A stretch of 52,315 bases of DNA. It comes from Minisyncoccota bacterium. GTDB taxonomy: Bacteria > Patescibacteriota > Minisyncoccia > Phycocordibacterales > UBA9973. The stretch is from the NCBI GenBank assembly GCA_031972855.1, contig DALYDY010000005.1:1-52315 (forward strand), read 5' to 3'. Under the pieces are notes generated by a model. It was not told the origin of the DNA, ran no database searches, and saw only the letters and a list, made by a program, of their open reading frames with translations. Shown here in pieces: positions 3 to 52,315 of this stretch. Positions within the stretch are counted from its first letter, which is position 1, and every line of letters starts with the position of its first letter. Made by a program: the position numbers and the translations under genes.

Positions 3-2069
3 GGAAATACTTCATCTACATACACAGCTCAATTTCACAATTCAACAGGTACAAATAATGCTTTAGTGATTCGTGATGATGGAAGTATTGGTGTTGGAAC
101 AAGTACTCCGTCATTTCAATTTCATATGGTTGGGAGTGCTCCAAATATGACAATTCAAAGATATAGTGATTCTACAACACCTCCTGTTTTTCGTGGATGG
201 AAATCAAGAGGTACAACATCTGTTCCTAGTGCTGTTTTGTCTGGAGATGGTTTAGCGTCTTTTATTGCTGGCGGTTATGATGGATCTGGATCTTTTGATA
301 CTGCAAGTATTCAAATGATTGCTGAAGAAAATTTTACAGGCTCTTCTAATAGAGGTACTTATATTTCTTTTAATACAAATGCTGTTGGATCAGCAGCAGC
401 TTCTGGTGGCTATGAGCGTATGAGAATATCTTCTGCTGGAAATATTGGTATTGGCACAACATCACCCGCAACAACTCTTGATATATCTGGTGGTGTTCAA
501 ATCAAAAAAGTTGATACAAATACTTCTCTATCTATGTATGGTCTTAACAGTGGTTCATTTGGTTTTCAACAAGCTTTTTATAAATCACGACAAACTTCAG
601 GAGTTGATGCGATAGTTCAAAACAGTGACAGAACAATGGAAATACGCACTTATGGATATGATGGGTCAGTGTATCAAACTTCAACAAAAATTATGGCAGA
701 AGTTGATGGTGTAGCTACTCTAAACAGTGTCCCTGGAAGACTTACTTTTTATACTACAAAATTAGGAGAAACTACATATGCTGAACGTATGCGTGTAGAT
801 AATGCTGGTAATGTTGGAGTGGGAACAACAAATATTTTTGACAGACTTAGTGTTTCTGGATTAAATCAAACACTTGATGCTGGTAGGGGTCAGATAGGTG
901 TATATAGTAATGATGAAATGGCTATAGATAAAGGAGGTCAGATAGTATTAGGAGGTTCAGATACTACAGGAGGAATACCTGTTCGTAGTTTTGCTTCTAT
1001 TGCTGGAAGAAAATTAAATAGCACTTCTGGTGATCGTTCTGGGTATTTGCAATTATCAGTTCGTTCTGATTCTAGTGGAGATTTGACTGAATATATGCGT
1101 ATTGTAAGTGGTGGAAATGTAGGTATTGGCACAGTTACACCATCATCTCAGCTTCATGTTAAATCAGCTTCTGGTGTAGATAGTGCTATAATAATAGACA
1201 CAACTACAGCCGATATTGCTGGTTCTGATGCTTCTATATCTATTCGTGAAGCAGGTGTAGAAAAGTGGAAAATAAGAAATGTTGGTGATGATGATGATAG
1301 TCTTAAAATAGGAACATCTTCTAATAATTGGGTTAAATTAAAAAAAGATACTGGTAATTTTGGTATTGGAAATAGTATAAATCCAGCTTACAAACTTCAA
1401 GTAGGTGATGGCTCTGTAGTCGGCATCGTCTCCCGTTTCCAAAACTCCACCGGAACATGTGACATCAACCCAACAACAACATCACTATCCTGTAGTTCAG
1501 ACAGAACACTCAAAACAAACATAACAAACCTAAACAACACAATACTCAACCAAATCACTACACTCCAACCTGTAACATACACATGGATAAACGATAACAC
1601 TAACCAACAACAAACAGGATTCATAGCACAAGACGTAGAAGCTATCTTCCCATCTCTTGTATCTACTGACCCTACAACAAACCTCAAGTCACTAAACTAC
1701 ATAGGTCTCATCCCTTATGCTATAGAGGGGATTAGAGAACTAGATATTAAACTCAACCAACAAGCATCACTAGACACTACACTTCAAGGATCATTTGGAT
1801 ACCTAGCAAAAGAATTCCTGGCTAATGTTAATTCTTATATAAAAGATTTAACTGTTGGAAAATTAAAAGTAGACGGAGATGTCTGTGTTGACGATGTGTG
1901 TATTTCAAAAGAACAATTTAAACAAATGTTGATTGATCAACAAAACAGATCTGGACAAGTAAATAATGTTGTTCAAGAAAATAATCCTGAAATTATTCCA
2001 GATAATCAAAATAACGAAGAAGAACCACTTCCAGACAATCAAGAAATTTCTATACCTCCAATAGAATAA
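3..2069 (+). CDS. 5'-truncated large tail-fibre-like/surface protein with GNVGIGT repeats and a C-terminal peptidase S74 (intramolecular chaperone) domain
   Basis: Frame is open from the window edge (GNTSSTY...). Repeated GNxGIGTxxP motifs; S74 motifs SSDRTLKTNI, LQPVTYTW and GFIAQDVEAIFPSLV followed by a coiled-coil. Confidence 0.85.
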   Translation, partial: GNTSSTYTAQFHNSTGTNNALVIRDDGSIGVGTSTPSFQFHMVGSAPNMTIQRYSDSTTPPVFRGWKSRGTTSVPSAVLSGDGLASFIAGGYDGSGSFDTASIQMIAEENFTGSSNRGTYISFNTNAVGSAAASGGYERMRISSAGNIGIGTTSPATTLDISGGVQIKKVDTNTSLSMYGLNSGSFGFQQAFYKSRQTSGVDAIVQNSDRTMEIRTYGYDGSVYQTSTKIMAEVDGVATLNSVPGRLTFYTTKLGETTYAERMRVDNAGNVGVGTTNIFDRLSVSGLNQTLDAGRGQIGVYSNDEMAIDKGGQIVLGGSDTTGGIPVRSFASIAGRKLNSTSGDRSGYLQLSVRSDSSGDLTEYMRIVSGGNVGIGTVTPSSQLHVKSASGVDSAIIIDTTTADIAGSDASISIREAGVEKWKIRNVGDDDDSLKIGTSSNNWVKLKKDTGNFGIGNSINPAYKLQVGDGSVVGIVSRFQNSTGTCDINPTTTSLSCSSDRTLKTNITNLNNTILNQITTLQPVTYTWINDNTNQQQTGFIAQDVEAIFPSLVSTDPTTNLKSLNYIGLIPYAIEGIRELDIKLNQQASLDTTLQGSFGYLAKEFLANVNSYIKDLTVGKLKVDGDVCVDDVCISKEQFKQMLIDQQNRSGQVNNVVQENNPEIIPDNQNNEEEPLPDNQEISIPPIE

Positions 2070-2144: not shown

Positions 2145-2447
2145 ATGGAAAGCGTTGCGCAAGAATCACCCAAGTTAACTTCTGAAAATTTTTCTTTTGA
2201 AAACTTAATGAAGTGTTTTGATGAAAGAAAAATAAAATATACACATAATGGAAATGTTTTTATTTCTCATCAAGAAGGAATTAGTTTCAAAGGTAAAAAA
2301 TATTCACTAAAGTTAACTGTTAGAATTATTGATAAAAAATTCACAGGAACAGTTGATGGTTGTGGTTCCAGAATACCTCAAGCGCGTGCTATTGAAACTG
2401 TAGAAGCCTTTTTCAAAAGGTTAGAGTCTACAAAAAAGAGTGAGTAA
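2145..2447 (+). CDS. Hypothetical protein (100 aa)
   Basis: Stand-alone ORF with ATG start, followed by the hairpin aaccttatat/atataaggtt; no recognised motif. Confidence 0.6.
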   Translation: MESVAQESPKLTSENFSFENLMKCFDERKIKYTHNGNVFISHQEGISFKGKKYSLKLTVRIIDKKFTGTVDGCGSRIPQARAIETVEAFFKRLESTKKSE

Positions 2448-2505
2448 CCTTATATTTATATAAGGTTTTTATTTTATCCGAACATTTTAAAAATGTTTTA
2501 AGGTT

Positions 2506-2534
2506 TTGCAAAAAATAGATTGATAGGGTAGTAT
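2506..2534 (+). promoter_or_regulatory. Sigma70-type promoter of the ileS T-box leader
   Basis: TTGCAA (2506-2511), 17-nt spacer, TAGTAT (2529-2534), ~10 nt before the T-box start. Confidence 0.55.
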
Positions 2535-2544
2535 AGATATACAA

Positions 2545-2789
2545 GCAATGAAGGAGATATCACTCCGGAGCTTTGGGAAGAACCATTAGACTACGTTCAT
2601 GGCGAGCCTTATGCAGTAGAACCCTCGACCGACTGAAAAGTTTAGGTCAAAAAATGAGACCCTAAAACAATTTTTATTAAAAACTGTTCGGGTAAAACTA
2701 AGGTGGTACCGCGAATTATTTATATACAAAAAATAAATCGCCCTTGGAATAATAATCAGAAATGATTGTTATTCGAGGGCGGTTTTTTT
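2545..2789 (+). promoter_or_regulatory. Ile T-box riboswitch, ultrashort Stem I type, with antiterminator and terminator
   Basis: GGAG-auAUCa-CUCC hairpin with Ile specifier AUC (2559-2561); GGGAAGAACC...CAGUAGAACC Stem II motif; T-box AAGGTGGTACCGCG (2700-2713); terminator 2739-2781 plus T7; located upstream of ileS. Confidence 0.9.
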
Positions 2790-2795
2790 GGTTGA

Positions 2796-2987
2796 CTATG
2801 TTTTATCTTTAAATATAAATATAAAATATATAAGGTAAAGTGGCCAAAGTAGGAATGCAATAATTTTTGTCACACTACCTAAAGGTTCTTTTGATGGAGT
2901 TTCTATTTCTCCAACAATATTTATTGTTAAACCAAATCCTGTATAACAAATTCCTATTAAGATTAATAATAAAGTTTTTATTTCCAT
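2796..2987 (-). CDS. Small two-TM membrane protein lying antisense inside the ileS leader
   Basis: 63 aa with two hydrophobic segments and an LLWP motif; preceded by a perfect minus-strand promoter. Confidence 0.65.
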   Translation of the reverse strand: MEIKTLLLILIGICYTGFGLTINIVGEIETPSKEPLGSVTKIIAFLLWPLYLIYFIFIFKDKT

Positions 2988-3012
2988 GTCTATTTAATTT
3001 TTTATTAACTAT

Positions 3013-3041
3013 ATTATATACCAATTAACATAATCTGTCAA
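3013..3041 (-). promoter_or_regulatory. Consensus sigma70 promoter, antisense to ileS
   Basis: Minus strand TTGACA (3041-3036), 17-nt spacer, TATAAT (3018-3013). Confidence 0.75.
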
Positions 3042-3042
3042 T

Positions 3043-6000
3043 ATGTCTCAAAATCAAGAAAATAAAAGTAAATCTGCAAACGCACTTCCGCAAGTTAGAG
3101 AAGGCTCTAACGCGGCACAGCGCGAAGAAGAAGTTTTAAAATTCTGGAAAGAAAATCAGATTTTTGAAAAGTCTGTAGAGAACCCTGCTGGTAGTAAGCC
3201 TCGCGCTGACTACGTATTTTATGACGGACCACCATTTGGTACAGGACTTCCACACTACGGACACTTGCTTGCAGGTACTATCAAAGATGCTTTTCCACGC
3301 TATCACACAATGAGAGGTGAGTCTGTTCGTCGTACTTGGGGATGGGATTGTCATGGTCTTCCTGTGGAGAATCTTATTGAAAAGAAACTCGGACTTAATA
3401 CTAAGAAAGATATTGAAGAATACGGTGTAGATAAATTCAACACAGAAGCTTGTAATAGTGTTCTTGAATTTAGTGATGATTGGAAAAAGATTATTCCGAT
3501 GACTGGACGCTTTGTGGATATGGAGCAGGACTACAAAACAATGGACGCTACATATACAGAGAGTATTTGGTGGATATTTTCTGAACTCGACAAGAAAGGA
3601 TTGATCTATCAAGGATATAAACCAATGCATCTATGTCCACGCTGTGAGACAACACTTTCAAACTTTGAAGTGACTCAAGGATACAAAGACATTACAGATA
3701 TTTCTGTATATGTAAAAATGCAAATTAAGAATGAAAATACATACTTCTTGGCTTGGACTACAACACCTTGGACTCTTCCTGGGAATGTTGCACTCGCTGT
3801 TGGGAAAGATATTACATATGTATATATAAAAATAAAAGATACAGACGTAGGTGACGCTCAATTTATTCTTGCAAAAGATAGAATTGAAAATGTTCTAAAA
3901 GGAAAAGAGTACGAAATTATAAAAGAAGTGAAAGGTTCTGATCTTGTTGGTATAGCTTACGATGCGCCTTTTGATTATTACCAAAAAGATAACAATCTAG
4001 AAAATCATGAAAGAGGTTGGAAGGTGTGCGCGGGAGAATTTGTAACTTTGGATGCTGGTACTGGTATTGTGCATATTGCACCAGCTTTTGGTGAAGACGA
4101 TATGAAGCTTGGTCAATTAGAAAAGCTTCCGTTCGTTCAACACGTGAAGACTGACGGACACTTCAAAGAAGAGGTAACTCATTTTGCTGGGATGCAAGTG
4201 AAGCCAAAAGATAATCACCAAGCGACAGATATTGAAGTTATAAAATATCTCGCACACAATCATCATCTTTTTGAAAAGGAAAAAATAATTCACTCATATC
4301 CACACTGCTGGCGTTGTGATACTCCACTTCTAAACTACGCTTCAACATCGTGGTTTGTTGAGACAACAAAATTGAAAGATAAGCTTATAGCTGCAAACCA
4401 AGAAGTGACTTGGATTCCAGGACACGTGAAGGATGGACGTTTTGGAAATTGGCTTGAGAATGTTCGTGATTGGGCTATATCTCGTAGTCGTTATTGGGGA
4501 GCTCCACTACCTGTATGGTTTGGTGAAGAATCAAATAAAAAGTACGTTATAGAGAGTGTTGAAGAACTAAAGAAGTACACAAAGAAGTCAGGGAATAAAT
4601 ATTTCGTTATGAGGCATGGAGAGGGCGAGCATAATGTCCTTGATATGTGTAGTTCAAATAAAGACAACCCTCATCATCTTACAGACTTGGGAATTGAACA
4701 TGTTAAAACAAGTTCAGAATTTCTAAAAGATAAAAACATTGATATTATTATTCGTTCTCCATTTGTTCGCACAAAAGAGACAACTAAAATAATTTGTGAC
4801 GAGCTTAGTTTCAATGAAGATAATGTTATAGAAGATGAGCGTATAGCAGAATTTAATTTTGGTGATTTCAATCTGCGCCCATTTGAAGAATATTTGAGTT
4901 ATAGACAAGGTCATGAATATGACATGGATTATGTTATCCTGGGAGGAGAAAGTCTTCAGCAAGCGAAGAATCGCTTTGCAGAATTCTTGTATGATATAGA
5001 AAAAAGATTTGAAGGAAAAAATATTCTTGTAGTAACTCATGGTATTGGTTTTCAAGTAATACCTTCTATAATTTCTGGTGCAACAAAAGAAGTTTCAGGA
5101 CATATTTTAAGAAATAAATTTAAGAAAATTCCAGATGCTTGTATTGAAGAATTTGAATTCGTTCCTCTCTCTCATAATTCTGATTACGAACTCGATCTAC
5201 ATCTACCATACATAGATAGAATAGAACTTGTAGATAATGGAGAGAAGCTTATTCGTACAAAAGAAGTGTTTGACTGCTGGTTTGAATCAGGAGCAATGCC
5301 TTATGCTTCAATCCACTATCCATTTGAGAATAAAGAATTATTTGAAACACAATTCCCAGCAGACTTTATTGCAGAGGGAATGGATCAAACTCGTGGATGG
5401 TTCTACAGTCTTCTAATTCTAGGTGTAGCACTCTTCGATAAGAGTCCTTATAAGAGAGTGGTAGTAAATGGAATTATACTTGCAGAGGATGGACAGAAAA
5501 TGTCTAAGAAGCTTAAGAATTATCCAGACGTTACTGAGGTCTTGGAGAAATATGGAGCAGACGCGCTTCGTTACTATATTCTTTCATCACCTGCTGTGAA
5601 GGGGGAAGAGCTTCGTTTTTCTGAAAAAGATTTAGCACAAATATCAAGTCGTGTTGTAGGTAGACTTCTCAATGTATTTTCTTTCTATGAACTTTATAAG
5701 AAAGATGATATTGATTTAGAAATACAAAGTACTAATGTGCTTGATCAATGGATACTGGCGCGTTCATATCAGCTTCTTTCTGAAATAGAAAGTGGAATGG
5801 AAATATATGAATTAGATAAAGCTGTGCGTCCGATAGATTTGTTTGTAGATGATCTATCTACATGGTATCTTCGTCGTTCACGTGACAGACTAAAAGATGG
5901 AGATGGTGAAGCTGTTGCTACTCTCTATACAGTTCTCAAAACTCTCTCTCAAATGATTGCACCGTTCGTGCCATTTATCTCTGAGTATATTTGGTTGAGA

Positions 6001-6537
6001 TTGAAATCTGAAAATTCAGCAGAATCAGTACATCTGTCAGCGTGGCCAATAAAAGGCACTGTTGATGAAAAATTAATTGAAGAAATGGTAAGTGTTCGCG
6101 AAATAGTAACTGTAGGTCTAAAAGAAAGACAAAAGGTGAATATTCCTGTAAGACAGCCACTCTCTAAAATAAAAATTAAAACTGAAAATCTAAAGAATGA
6201 ATATCAAGAAATCATAAAAGATGAGCTTAATATAAAAGAAATTTGTATTGAAAAAGATATTGAAAATGATATAGAGTTAGATATAGAAATTACTCCCGAA
6301 CTCAAAAAAGAGGGAATGTATCGTGAACTCGTTCGCTCTATTCAAGATCTAAGAAAAGAAAAAGGCTTAAATCCTTCAGATAAAATAAATCTCTTATTGA
6401 GTGAGAATTCTAAAGTAATTGTAAATGAGTATCTGGAAGATTTACAAAAAACAGTTGGAGCAGAAAGTGTAGAATTCAATGCAATAGAAGGTAAAGAAAT
6501 TAAGATTGACGAAGAAATATATTTTATAAATTTATAA
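3043..6537 (+). CDS. ileS: Isoleucine--tRNA ligase (IleRS2 type) with an inserted histidine-phosphatase domain
   Basis: FYDGPPF...PHYGH, GWDCHGLP, WTTTPWTLP, RDWAISRSRYWG, DQTRGWFY and KMSKK motifs; insert carries RHG, SPFVRT and VTHG. Confidence 0.97.
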   Translation: MSQNQENKSKSANALPQVREGSNAAQREEEVLKFWKENQIFEKSVENPAGSKPRADYVFYDGPPFGTGLPHYGHLLAGTIKDAFPRYHTMRGESVRRTWGWDCHGLPVENLIEKKLGLNTKKDIEEYGVDKFNTEACNSVLEFSDDWKKIIPMTGRFVDMEQDYKTMDATYTESIWWIFSELDKKGLIYQGYKPMHLCPRCETTLSNFEVTQGYKDITDISVYVKMQIKNENTYFLAWTTTPWTLPGNVALAVGKDITYVYIKIKDTDVGDAQFILAKDRIENVLKGKEYEIIKEVKGSDLVGIAYDAPFDYYQKDNNLENHERGWKVCAGEFVTLDAGTGIVHIAPAFGEDDMKLGQLEKLPFVQHVKTDGHFKEEVTHFAGMQVKPKDNHQATDIEVIKYLAHNHHLFEKEKIIHSYPHCWRCDTPLLNYASTSWFVETTKLKDKLIAANQEVTWIPGHVKDGRFGNWLENVRDWAISRSRYWGAPLPVWFGEESNKKYVIESVEELKKYTKKSGNKYFVMRHGEGEHNVLDMCSSNKDNPHHLTDLGIEHVKTSSEFLKDKNIDIIIRSPFVRTKETTKIICDELSFNEDNVIEDERIAEFNFGDFNLRPFEEYLSYRQGHEYDMDYVILGGESLQQAKNRFAEFLYDIEKRFEGKNILVVTHGIGFQVIPSIISGATKEVSGHILRNKFKKIPDACIEEFEFVPLSHNSDYELDLHLPYIDRIELVDNGEKLIRTKEVFDCWFESGAMPYASIHYPFENKELFETQFPADFIAEGMDQTRGWFYSLLILGVALFDKSPYKRVVVNGIILAEDGQKMSKKLKNYPDVTEVLEKYGADALRYYILSSPAVKGEELRFSEKDLAQISSRVVGRLLNVFSFYELYKKDDIDLEIQSTNVLDQWILARSYQLLSEIESGMEIYELDKAVRPIDLFVDDLSTWYLRRSRDRLKDGDGEAVATLYTVLKTLSQMIAPFVPFISEYIWLRLKSENSAESVHLSAWPIKGTVDEKLIEEMVSVREIVTVGLKERQKVNIPVRQPLSKIKIKTENLKNEYQEIIKDELNIKEICIEKDIENDIELDIEITPELKKEGMYRELVRSIQDLRKEKGLNPSDKINLLLSENSKVIVNEYLEDLQKTVGAESVEFNAIEGKEIKIDEEIYFINL

Positions 6538-10513: not shown

Positions 10514-12382
10514 ATGGCAGACAATTTAGATCATATTGAAGAATTAAAAAAGAGGCTTTTTATGGCGAAAGACGAAAAGTCTATCCCTGAACTTCGCGAA
10601 CATACTCTTCATAATCCACGTTATCAAGTTGCCAAAAAATGGACCAAAGAAACTATTAACACAACAACCAAAATTATGTCACATGGCTCAATGTTCAAAA
10701 AGTTTTTTGTAGTATCACTACTCTTGTTTTTGGGTGCAGCTTCATTTTTTGCCTTCACCTTTCTAAAAGGAAATAATACTGTTTCAAATGATAATATAGA
10801 AGTTTCTATTTTAGGAAATGCTTTCACAAAAGGAGGTGACCAGCTGCCTATAAATGTATCTATTACAAATAAAAATAAAAGCCAAATTTCTGGAGTTGAT
10901 TTGGTTGTTTCTTATCCAAAAGGAAGTGGAACAAATGACACTTCTGAATATGTCAGACTTAGAAAGACAATAGGAACAATAGAATCAGGAGAAACAAAAA
11001 GTGAGCCATACACACTAGTGTTGTATGGTGAGCAAGGTACTGTAAAAAATATAACAGCATCTATAGAATATCGTGTTTCTGGGTCTAATGCTCTTTTTAT
11101 AAAAGATGCATCATTCACTGTTACACTTTCTGAAGCACCTCTCTCACTTTTAGTTGACGCTCCAGAAATGATTGGCTCAAATCAAGAATACAATCTATCA
11201 ATAACAACAACTCTAAATGCAGATACTTTAAGTAAAGATATGGTTTTGGTTGTGGCTTATCCACCAGGATTTTCTTATACAAATGCAAGTCAAAGTCCAA
11301 TGGTTGGGAATAATGTTTTTGATTTGGGAGATTTGAAACAAGGAGTTCCAAAAACAATAACAATAAAAGGCAATCTTGTGGGTCTTGATAAAGAAGAAAG
11401 ATCTTTCCAGATATATGCAGGTGAACAAAATAAAGACAATCAGTCTGCAATAGGTGTTATATATAATTCATTGCTTCAAAACGTGATGATAACTAGACCT
11501 TTTCTAGATGCGCATCTTACTATAAATGGAGAAGATAAGCCTGTTTATTCTGTGAGTGGTTCTACTCCAATAAATGCTCAAATAGTTTGGTCAAACAATG
11601 CAATAACTCGTATTACCGGTGCTCAAGTCAGTCTTCAATTTAATGGACAAGCTTTAGATAAGGATTCTGTTATAGTTCCAAATGGTAGATATGACGCTCG
11701 AAACAATCTTATAGTTTGGGATGCAGATACAGTACCAGAATTTGTTGCCCTTGAACCAGGAGCAACAGGAACTCTTCCTTTTACAATTAGTGCAAAAAAT
11801 ATTTCAGGAACATCACTAAATTCAGAAATACAAATGACTGTCGGTATAAGAGGTGAGCAATCAGGTGATGGTATTGGACAACAAACAATTTCAAGTGTAG
11901 ACAAAAAGACTCTTCGTTTTGGTGTTGATTTTCAAATTGCACAAAGTGTTAGTTTCTTACAAGGTCCATTCAAAAATTCAGGTACAAATCCTCCAAAGAA
12001 AGGAGCTGAAACAACCTATACTGTTAATTGGACACTCTCTCCTGTAGAAAATGTTGTGACAGGTGCCATAGCTAAAGCAGTACTTCCTATTGGTGTGAGA
12101 TGGGTTGCTAAGACTTCTCCAGCTTTGGAAAAAATATCATTTAATCCAAGTACTCGAGAAGTTATTTGGGATATTGGAACTGTTAAAAAATCTACAAGCA
12201 ATCTCGTTCGTCAGGTTTCTTTCCAGGTTGGGGTAACACCTTCAGCTTTTGATACAGAAACAACCACTCTTTTGATGGGTGAATTAAATGTTACAGGCAC
12301 AGATACATATACAGGATCATCTGTTAAAAATACAAAAAGAGAATTAAATACTAGAATTGTCGATGGGAAAACTTCTAATTAA
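10514..12382 (+). CDS. Membrane-anchored extracellular protein with tandem Ig-like (DUF11-like) domains
   Basis: One TM (FFVVSLLLFLGAASFFAF) followed by beta-rich repeats; start placed at MADNL. Confidence 0.75.
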   Translation: MADNLDHIEELKKRLFMAKDEKSIPELREHTLHNPRYQVAKKWTKETINTTTKIMSHGSMFKKFFVVSLLLFLGAASFFAFTFLKGNNTVSNDNIEVSILGNAFTKGGDQLPINVSITNKNKSQISGVDLVVSYPKGSGTNDTSEYVRLRKTIGTIESGETKSEPYTLVLYGEQGTVKNITASIEYRVSGSNALFIKDASFTVTLSEAPLSLLVDAPEMIGSNQEYNLSITTTLNADTLSKDMVLVVAYPPGFSYTNASQSPMVGNNVFDLGDLKQGVPKTITIKGNLVGLDKEERSFQIYAGEQNKDNQSAIGVIYNSLLQNVMITRPFLDAHLTINGEDKPVYSVSGSTPINAQIVWSNNAITRITGAQVSLQFNGQALDKDSVIVPNGRYDARNNLIVWDADTVPEFVALEPGATGTLPFTISAKNISGTSLNSEIQMTVGIRGEQSGDGIGQQTISSVDKKTLRFGVDFQIAQSVSFLQGPFKNSGTNPPKKGAETTYTVNWTLSPVENVVTGAIAKAVLPIGVRWVAKTSPALEKISFNPSTREVIWDIGTVKKSTSNLVRQVSFQVGVTPSAFDTETTTLLMGELNVTGTDTYTGSSVKNTKRELNTRIVDGKTSN

Positions 12383-12401
12383 TATGGTATAAAAGAAAGA
12401 T

Positions 12402-47010: not shown

Positions 47011-47142
47011 AAAATATTAAAAAACACATAAATTTATGTGTTTTTTAATTATAAGCGAACCACGTTAGATATTTTGCGAGAATTATCTCACGTGGCGAGC
47101 ATATTTGCCTAAATACGATTTCTTTGTTACTATACAAGAACT

Positions 47143-47216
47143 TGCCGTAGACAGAGGGTTGTCATAAAAGACATAAAACCTTCCGAGGTATCTCATCCAA
47201 TTTTATTGGAGATACG
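47143..47216 (+). promoter_or_regulatory. Ribosomal protein L10 leader
   Basis: CCGTAGACAG...AAACCTTCCGAGG upstream of rplJ; promoter TTGCCT-17-TACTAT at 47105-47133. Confidence 0.8.
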
Positions 47217-50049: not shown

Positions 50050-50187
50050 CCCTCTTGTATTCTTTGATAAAAGTAAATCACTTTCCGGACACCCATTTTG
50101 GGGTCTTTTACGTCCGAGAAAGGAGTGGTTTAATATACGATGGAAGCGGTTCCGGAGTATAACCACGACAGTAGTTTTTAAATTTCC

Positions 50188-52315
<2,128 letters not shown>

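Follow-up and report, generated by a model that had tools for sequence, protein, structure and literature searches.

The window, meaning the whole stretch of 52,315 nucleotides that was analysed, carries on its plus strand an isoleucyl-tRNA synthetase gene (ileS, 3043..6537) preceded by a T-box leader at 2543..2789. ileS is the next plus-strand gene after the leader and is presumed to be the gene that it regulates. The intrinsic terminator of an upstream gene for a 100-amino-acid product, and a promoter for the leader, were read from the sequence. The terminator (2446..2476, +) is a hairpin of AACCUUAUA and UAUAAGGUU followed by UUUUAUUUU, and is 97% identical in L001, the locus of the closest relative (82% identity in IleRS). 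This predicted terminator sets the leader apart as a transcription unit of its own and suggests that the host genome employs terminators of the hairpin and U-tract type. The putative leader promoter (2506..2534, +) comprises TTGCAA (2506-2511), a gap of 17 nt and TAGTAT (2529-2534), and lies under the 9/12 threshold of a simple scan; the predicted transcription start is just 5′ of the basal helix of the leader. Of 47 related leaders, 43 have a −10 hexamer whose end lies 6-9 nt from the basal helix on its 5′ side; a TGn extension is present in 30 of these. Since this hexamer is directly upstream, the RNA would begin at Stem I, making a longer stem impossible.

Architecture of the leader

Stem I is ultrashort, its whole span being 2544..2572 (+). 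A basal helix (AGC 2544-2546 with GCU 2570-2572) and a K-turn-like element (AAUGAA 2547-2552 opposite GGA 2567-2569) lead into a helix of 4 bp (GGAG 2553-2556 with CUCC 2563-2566), which is capped by the apical loop AUAUCA (2557-2562). The specifier AUC (Ile), which a preliminary description of this DNA had placed in the apical loop of a GGAG/CUCC stem, is indeed found there, at 2559-2561, followed on its 3′ side by the purine A2562, and it agrees with the ileS gene downstream.

Stem II with its S-turn (2575..2624, +) was likewise identified by reading the sequence. The lower helix pairs GGG (2575-2577) with CCC (2622-2624) and in the S-turn AAGAA (2578-2582) faces AGUAGAA (2615-2621); the two strands belong to GGGAAGAACC at 2575-2584 and CAGUAGAACC at 2614-2623. 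Towards the apex the stem becomes irregular and contains a lineage-specific insertion. By analogy with the published description of an ‘anticodon pincer’ (PMC7583486), Stem II would hold the anticodon. A plain hairpin comes next (2627..2648, +; GACC..GGUC with an inner GACU-GAAA-AGUU; fold −7.6 kcal/mol), which occupies the place of the Stem IIA/B pseudoknot of relatives and is missing in L001. Neither an F-box (CCGUUA-like) nor a IIA/B pseudoknot was found at 2627-2648 of the window leader, and a pseudoknot of the IIA/B type within 2627-2658 was rejected, just a weak UUU/AAA possibility being present. The plain hairpin fits the report that a hairpin can largely replace the pseudoknot in vitro (PMC7583486). 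The purine-rich string AAAAAAUGAG (2649..2658, +) precedes Stem III; its AAAUGAG is kept family-wide (consensus of alignment A3, AAATGAGA), and a motif 5′-RRRxG-Stem III-AA-3′ has been described (PMC7583486). Stem III itself (2659..2693, +) is formed by ACCC..GGGU and an inner AACA-UUUUU/AAAAA-UGUU, with a fold of −7.4 kcal/mol; L001 has another helix of another sequence at this place.

The antiterminator (2700..2745, +; −11.4 kcal/mol, RNAfold) consists of helix A1 (AAGG 2700-2703 with CCUU 2742-2745, +), a 7-nt T-box bulge (UGGUACC 2704-2710, +), of which UGGU would pair with the 3′-ACCA of the tRNA, and helix A2 (GCGA 2711-2714 with UCGC 2738-2741, +), which is extended by an A/U helix. The intrinsic terminator (2738..2789, +; −29.2 kcal/mol, RNAfold) is a hairpin at 2738-2782 with the loop GAAA (2759-2762), followed by U7 (2783-2789). 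The two structures have UCGCCCUU in common, and their overlap, 2738-2745, is the 5′ arm of the terminator; as both need these nucleotides, they are mutually exclusive. The bulge inside an antiterminator and the terminator sharing one of its strands, both proposed in the preliminary description, are thus borne out. On the minus strand the same hairpin (−20.4 kcal/mol) is followed by UUUAUUUUUU and also reads as a terminator. The simple terminator scan made no call at 2738-2789, probably because the A/U-rich upper hairpin and its one bulge fail an ungapped rule of three G-C pairs.

Elsewhere in the window, a ribosomal protein L10 leader (RF00557) was matched at 47127-47215 (+) with 41.9 bits, just under the gathering score of 44. 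A 23S rRNA gene starts at 50187 and is cut by the window end (50187-52315, +); the 50 kb before it contain neither a 16S rRNA gene nor a tRNA gene, and from the lack of a 16S rRNA gene in this interval the rRNA genes appear to be unlinked. At 66-2069 (+) a 667-amino-acid protein with a Peptidase_S74 (endosialidase chaperone) domain is encoded; this domain is known from the C-termini of phage tail fibres and from some surface proteins.

Detection, relatives and covariation

A search of the whole window, both strands, with all Rfam families matched the T-box model RF00230 at 2539..2748 (42.7 bits, E 3.6e-06), and the E-value was 4.8e-08 when only the leader region was searched. The score is below the RF00230 gathering score of 93, and at gathering level Rfam gave nothing at the leader. 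This shortfall arises because 74 distal Stem I positions of the model are replaced by 4 nt; the basal helix, the K-turn, the T-box and the antiterminator are kept in the alignment. The leader is the sole T-box-like match in the 52-kb window. When 37 related leaders, not including the window, L001 or L103, were used to build a covariance model, that model also gave one match in the 52 kb, at 2543..2746 (67.9 bits, rough E 1.6e-13). The 257-nt leader region folds with z = −3.9 relative to shuffled sequences. The Rfam match, the match to the leave-out model and the fold together make the T-box identity of the leader more than chance, and chance resemblance was rejected on the two matches and on the covariation of Stem I.

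Relatives were gathered from reference genomes and from a metagenome scan that used the Stem II motif as search pattern, so conservation of the Stem II S-turn in the metagenome set is by construction. The scan yielded 84 loci, mostly on low-G+C contigs of the same layout, and 49 distinct low-G+C leaders with an ultrashort Stem I were found upstream of ileS. An IleRS gene follows the T-box in all leaders whose contig reaches far enough. The arrangement of an ultrashort Stem I with a terminator is common, not rare, within these lineages of the candidate phyla radiation (CPR). In the reference-genome collection a T-box lies upstream of ileS in five (L001, L010, L011, L012 and L018) of the 18 closest IleRS loci, and none was found there in the other 13. 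All 18 loci are from Patescibacteria-type or unclassified metagenome-assembled genomes, which supports the assignment to the CPR that had been made in the preliminary description.

Stem I covaries. Among 44 distinct Stem I segments (alignment A2) AUC is invariant and followed by a purine, and the basal helix is 100% paired. All four pairs of the short helix show changes on both sides (30 cells), a level reached in 0 of 500 shuffles and far above that of any slid register of the alignment. In L001 the helix is the compensatory CGAG/CUCG. Identity between the window and L001 is 98% from the T-box to the U-run (2694-2789) and 91% in Stem I, as against 46% in Stem II and Stem III and 40% in the spacer that follows the terminator; the L103 leader is identical to that of the window.

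For the structure in its antiterminator form, 93.6% of cells are paired across the 37 leaders, with double-sided changes at 12 of 23 pairs (0 of 500 shuffles). A1 and A2 are 99-100% paired, with double-sided changes at three pairs, and in Stem II the flanking pair 36-87 and the pair 39-84 of the lower helix change on both sides. A sequence like the F-box pseudoknot is present at the IIA/B place in 20 of the 49 related leaders. The terminator is widespread: a hairpin and U-run were found in 45 of 47 related leaders with enough 3′ sequence (median −27.9 kcal/mol), by eye also in L081 and L102, and in 12 of 12 leaders with an extra hairpin or an intermediate Stem I. In these relatives the terminator hairpin begins within the antiterminator 3′ strand and runs up to the U-run. 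The nucleotide opposite the first A2 base is also a pairing partner in the terminator, and the three positions covary (T-box CC[G/A]CG, partner CG[C/U]CC, terminator GG[G/A]CG); this first pair of A2 is G-C in eight cases including the window and A-U in 48, A-U being the form of most relatives. The anatomy and conservation of the leader, the covariation of Stem I, A1/A2 and the terminator arms, the mutual exclusivity of the two folds and the linkage to ileS were thus computed directly. Of the checks named in the preliminary description, the T-box model search returned the match below gathering score reported above, and the alignment of CPR-type ileS leaders returned covariation at every pair of the short Stem I.

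Some relatives are reduced further. Just 21-25 nt separate Stem II from the T-box in L011 (919-1028), L084 (1057-1162, −), L035 (3960-4068, −), L093, L094, L100, L037, L058 and L055. These leaders are without the IIA/B pseudoknot and Stem III and measure 106-113 nt from the K-turn to the antiterminator; all have strong terminators, and IleRS follows where the contig suffices (that of L093 ends too early). Stem III has been described as indispensable (PMC7583486). In L066, L098, L053, L021, L025 and L091 (alignment A3, columns 40-83) Stem II lacks an upper helix and consists of the S-turn strands joined by 3-5 nt, as in GGGAAGAA-AAUA-AGUAGAACCC. In L034 (oriented 12131-12395) and L071 a same-strand open reading frame (ORF) of 84 amino acids lies between the Ile T-box terminator and ileS. 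Its product shows a weak MtN3/SemiSWEET-like similarity (21.4 bits, the cut-off being 23.7) and may be a T-box-controlled small transporter.

The IleRS and comparison with known T-boxes

The product of ileS matches TIGR00392 with 878.9 bits and the MupA/MupB-like models with about 750 bits, carries DUF5915 (Pfam) at its C-terminus, and gave no IleRS1 zinc-finger domain in profile searches. These matches are indicative of the MupA/MupB-like type 2 kind (IleRS2), in agreement with the typing in the preliminary description. A histidine-phosphatase (phosphoglycerate-mutase-like, PF00300) domain is inserted in the catalytic core at 4597-5082 of the window (residues 519-680), with its RHG and THG motifs intact. 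The same insertion was found at the same site in all eight CPR IleRS relatives tested (E 1e-27 to 1e-34). In tblastn comparisons of the IleRS with the high-G+C locus L057 and with L081, L088 and L102, the alignments end at about residue 511-519. A literature search found no description of a histidine-phosphatase insertion in IleRS. No tRNA-Ile(GAU) came up when the window and 60 loci were scanned for tRNA genes, the one related call being a tRNA-Ile(tat) on the minus strand near the end of L084; the anticodon and the discriminator base of the tRNA are therefore assumed here.

Ultrashort Stem I elements are known as a class of translational ileS T-boxes of the Actinobacteria (bioRxiv 10.1101/2023.02.28.530422; PMC7583486), represented by Mycobacterium smegmatis, M. 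tuberculosis and Nocardia farcinica (Sherwood et al. 2015; PDB 6UFG and 6UFM, as cited in PMC7583486). The window leader resembles them in preceding a type-2 ileS, in the K-turn and the very short Stem I, whose terminal loop presents AUC followed by a purine, in the lack of an elbow platform, and in its identical Stem II S-turn, its Stem III and its UGGUACC bulge. It differs in that an intrinsic terminator with U7 replaces the Shine-Dalgarno (SD) sequestrator, a plain hairpin (absent in L001) replaces the F-box IIA/B pseudoknot, and the base pair of A2 is G-C and not G-U, the G-U wobble having been described as the steric sensor. The host also differs, being a low-G+C member of the CPR, as does the long spacer with an antisense gene before ileS.

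Three high-G+C comparators (L051, L054 and L057; 71-75% G+C), probably contigs of Actinobacteria, share the K-turn, the ultrashort Stem I and the AAGAA/AGUAGAA Stem II and match the same covariance model, which upholds the actinobacterial layout recognised in the preliminary description. They have no U-run. Instead, the 3′ strand of A1, UCCCUGG, is complementary to CCAGGAGA just before the AUG and would act as an SD sequestrator, a pairing that corresponds to the published arrangement.

With the transcriptional T-boxes of the Firmicutes (RF00230; Bacillus subtilis tyrS and glyQS) the window leader shares a promoter-proximal position, the logic of specifier-anticodon and UGGN-NCCA pairing, a weak antiterminator set against a strong terminator with a U-tract, and an aminoacyl-tRNA synthetase gene downstream. 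It departs from them in the absence of the whole distal Stem I (the specifier internal loop, the AG bulge and the distal loop platform), so that 4 bp and a 6-nt loop stand where class I has a long Stem I with a distal double-T-loop platform for the tRNA elbow, and in the position of the specifier in the apical loop. Like the glyQS-type minimal T-box it is a naturally reduced transcriptional T-box, but reduced differently: the glyQS type has lost Stem II and IIA/B but retains the platform of a long Stem I, whereas in the window leader the platform is gone and Stem II is retained.

Judged by its sequence features, the element is a T-box by its logic and most of its defining features, among them the 7-nt bulge between A1 and A2 and a specifier that matches the downstream gene, with a sensor like that of the actinobacterial class and an output like that of the Firmicutes class. 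The preliminary description had called this combination unusual in a CPR genome. That holds with respect to the literature covered, in which it is not expected, and fails within these CPR lineages, where it is common. Many, not all, of the actinobacterial ultrashort T-boxes are said to be translational in the abstract of Sherwood et al. 2015. A later account describes all of them as translational (bioRxiv 10.1101/2023.02.28.530422), and according to a kinetic argument transcriptional T-boxes generally need the elbow platform of a long Stem I for fast tRNA capture, an ultrashort Stem I being tolerable only in translational switches, which are able to equilibrate (PMC7583486). A literature search found no paper linking T-boxes with CPR/Patescibacteria, and as far as checked the terminator-type ultrashort ileS T-box of the CPR is undescribed, an earlier mention of rare terminator-type ultrashort leaders being possible.

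Proposed control of ileS

We consider it likely, with a probability of roughly 0.8, that the T-box at 2543..2789 senses tRNA-Ile and controls ileS through attenuation of transcription, by tRNA-Ile-dependent antitermination. From the sequence features we infer the start site, tRNA binding, termination and read-through as follows. Transcription would start just 5′ of the basal helix, and the nascent RNA would fold the K-turn and the 4-bp Stem I, presenting AUC in the apical loop. The Stem II S-turn would dock on Stem I and clamp the anticodon GAU of tRNA-Ile, as homology with the ileS T-boxes of Actinobacteria suggests. If the tRNA is uncharged, its 3′-ACCA would pair with UGGU of the bulge and, together with Stem III and the purine string, hold the weak antiterminator; 2738-2745 would then be unavailable to the terminator and RNA polymerase would read on to ileS. 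With charged tRNA or none, the much stronger terminator would form and transcription would stop at U7.

The distance between the terminator and the ileS ATG is 253 nt in the window, compared with about 10-80 nt in most relatives, in which the same leader abuts the ileS start codon. An ORF encoding a hydrophobic product of 63 amino acids with a CYTGFG motif lies in this spacer on the minus strand (2796..2987). A minus-strand promoter, TTGACA-17-TATAAT (3013..3041; 12/12 consensus matches), abuts the ileS start codon, faces the spacer and would drive this ORF. This antisense unit ends at the T-box terminator, which seems to be bidirectional. Read-through from the leader must cross the antisense unit head-on, which leaves room for either a decoupled switch or a layer of convergent transcription. 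The spacer and the strong antisense promoter may mean that read-through is impeded or that ileS has its own promoter. The antisense unit could serve convergent-transcription control, or be a gene for a small membrane protein or a toxin-like product.

As an addition to the attenuation model, T-box read-through might silence the antisense gene as one for a small membrane protein, while the promoter of that gene dampens ileS by convergent transcription. This seems rather doubtful. It is favoured by the position of the consensus promoter, next to the ileS start codon and directed at the leader, by the terminator shared between both units, and by conservation of the arrangement in L001, L103 and the distant L065: L103 encodes a homologue of 77% identity at the same position, L065 a weak one (E 1e-5) with the CYTGFG motif and with ORF and promoter in the same positions, and minus-strand promoter counterparts occur at the same place in L001 (TTGACA-18-TAGTAT) and L065 (TTGACA-17-TATTAT). 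This support is, however, purely positional. In L001 the unit recurs by position, but its ORF has no detectable similarity to that of the window; the small ORF is poorly conserved, with one database homologue only; and most leaders of the family are without the unit.

The same spacer could instead signal a T-box that is decoupled or decaying, with the hairpin as a constitutive bidirectional terminator and ileS expressed from its own promoter in the spacer. The consensus antisense promoter and the conserved small ORF, the minus-strand reading of the hairpin as a terminator, and weak plus-strand promoter-like sites at 2943-2970 and 3005-3034 would all be in keeping with this, and the 13 reference CPR ileS loci without a T-box indicate that the element is dispensable in the group. 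Yet the DNA around the leader has diverged, whereas the segment from T-box to U-run is nearly unchanged in L001 and all of the leader is the same in L103; the Stem I difference from L001 is a compensatory pair; and in most relatives the leader directly adjoins ileS. Decay is accordingly an unlikely explanation.

A translational switch by SD sequestration, as in the actinobacterial ultrashort ileS T-boxes whose sensor architecture the leader shares and which the literature treats as translational throughout, is very improbable and was rejected for the window leader on the distance to the start codon and on the U-tract: the alternative helix contains no SD-like sequence and is followed by U7, 253 nt from the start codon, and the relatives have U-runs and no sequestered SD, which the high-G+C comparators do have.

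Beyond the window, an entire clade of T-boxes that attenuate transcription with no elbow platform on Stem I may exist in the CPR, of which some sub-lineages (such as L011, L035, L084 and L093) also lack the IIA/B pseudoknot and Stem III; we advance this tentatively, at a little under even odds. According to structural work, fast tRNA capture or sensing of the aminoacyl group requires the elbow platform, the IIA/B pseudoknot and Stem III. If the minimal leaders are functional, co-transcriptional tRNA sensing would need only the anticodon clamp of Stem I and Stem II and a bare antiterminator, and the leaders of 106-113 nt would be the smallest natural T-boxes. A family of conserved and covarying leaders in which an ultrashort sensor is coupled to an intrinsic terminator challenges the kinetic generalisation of PMC7583486, and its members could serve as natural minimal constructs in kinetic and structural experiments.

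CPR genomes have few known regulatory RNAs. T-box leaders of this kind are probably missing from CPR annotation, given scores far below the Rfam threshold and the scope of TBDB, whose short-stem model was applied solely to Actinobacteria and to those class I model hits that had a truncated Stem I (PMC7778990). High-G+C comparators and CPR contigs alike carry this sensor architecture before an ileS gene of the type-2-like kind, which is relevant to the question of where the cassette came from.
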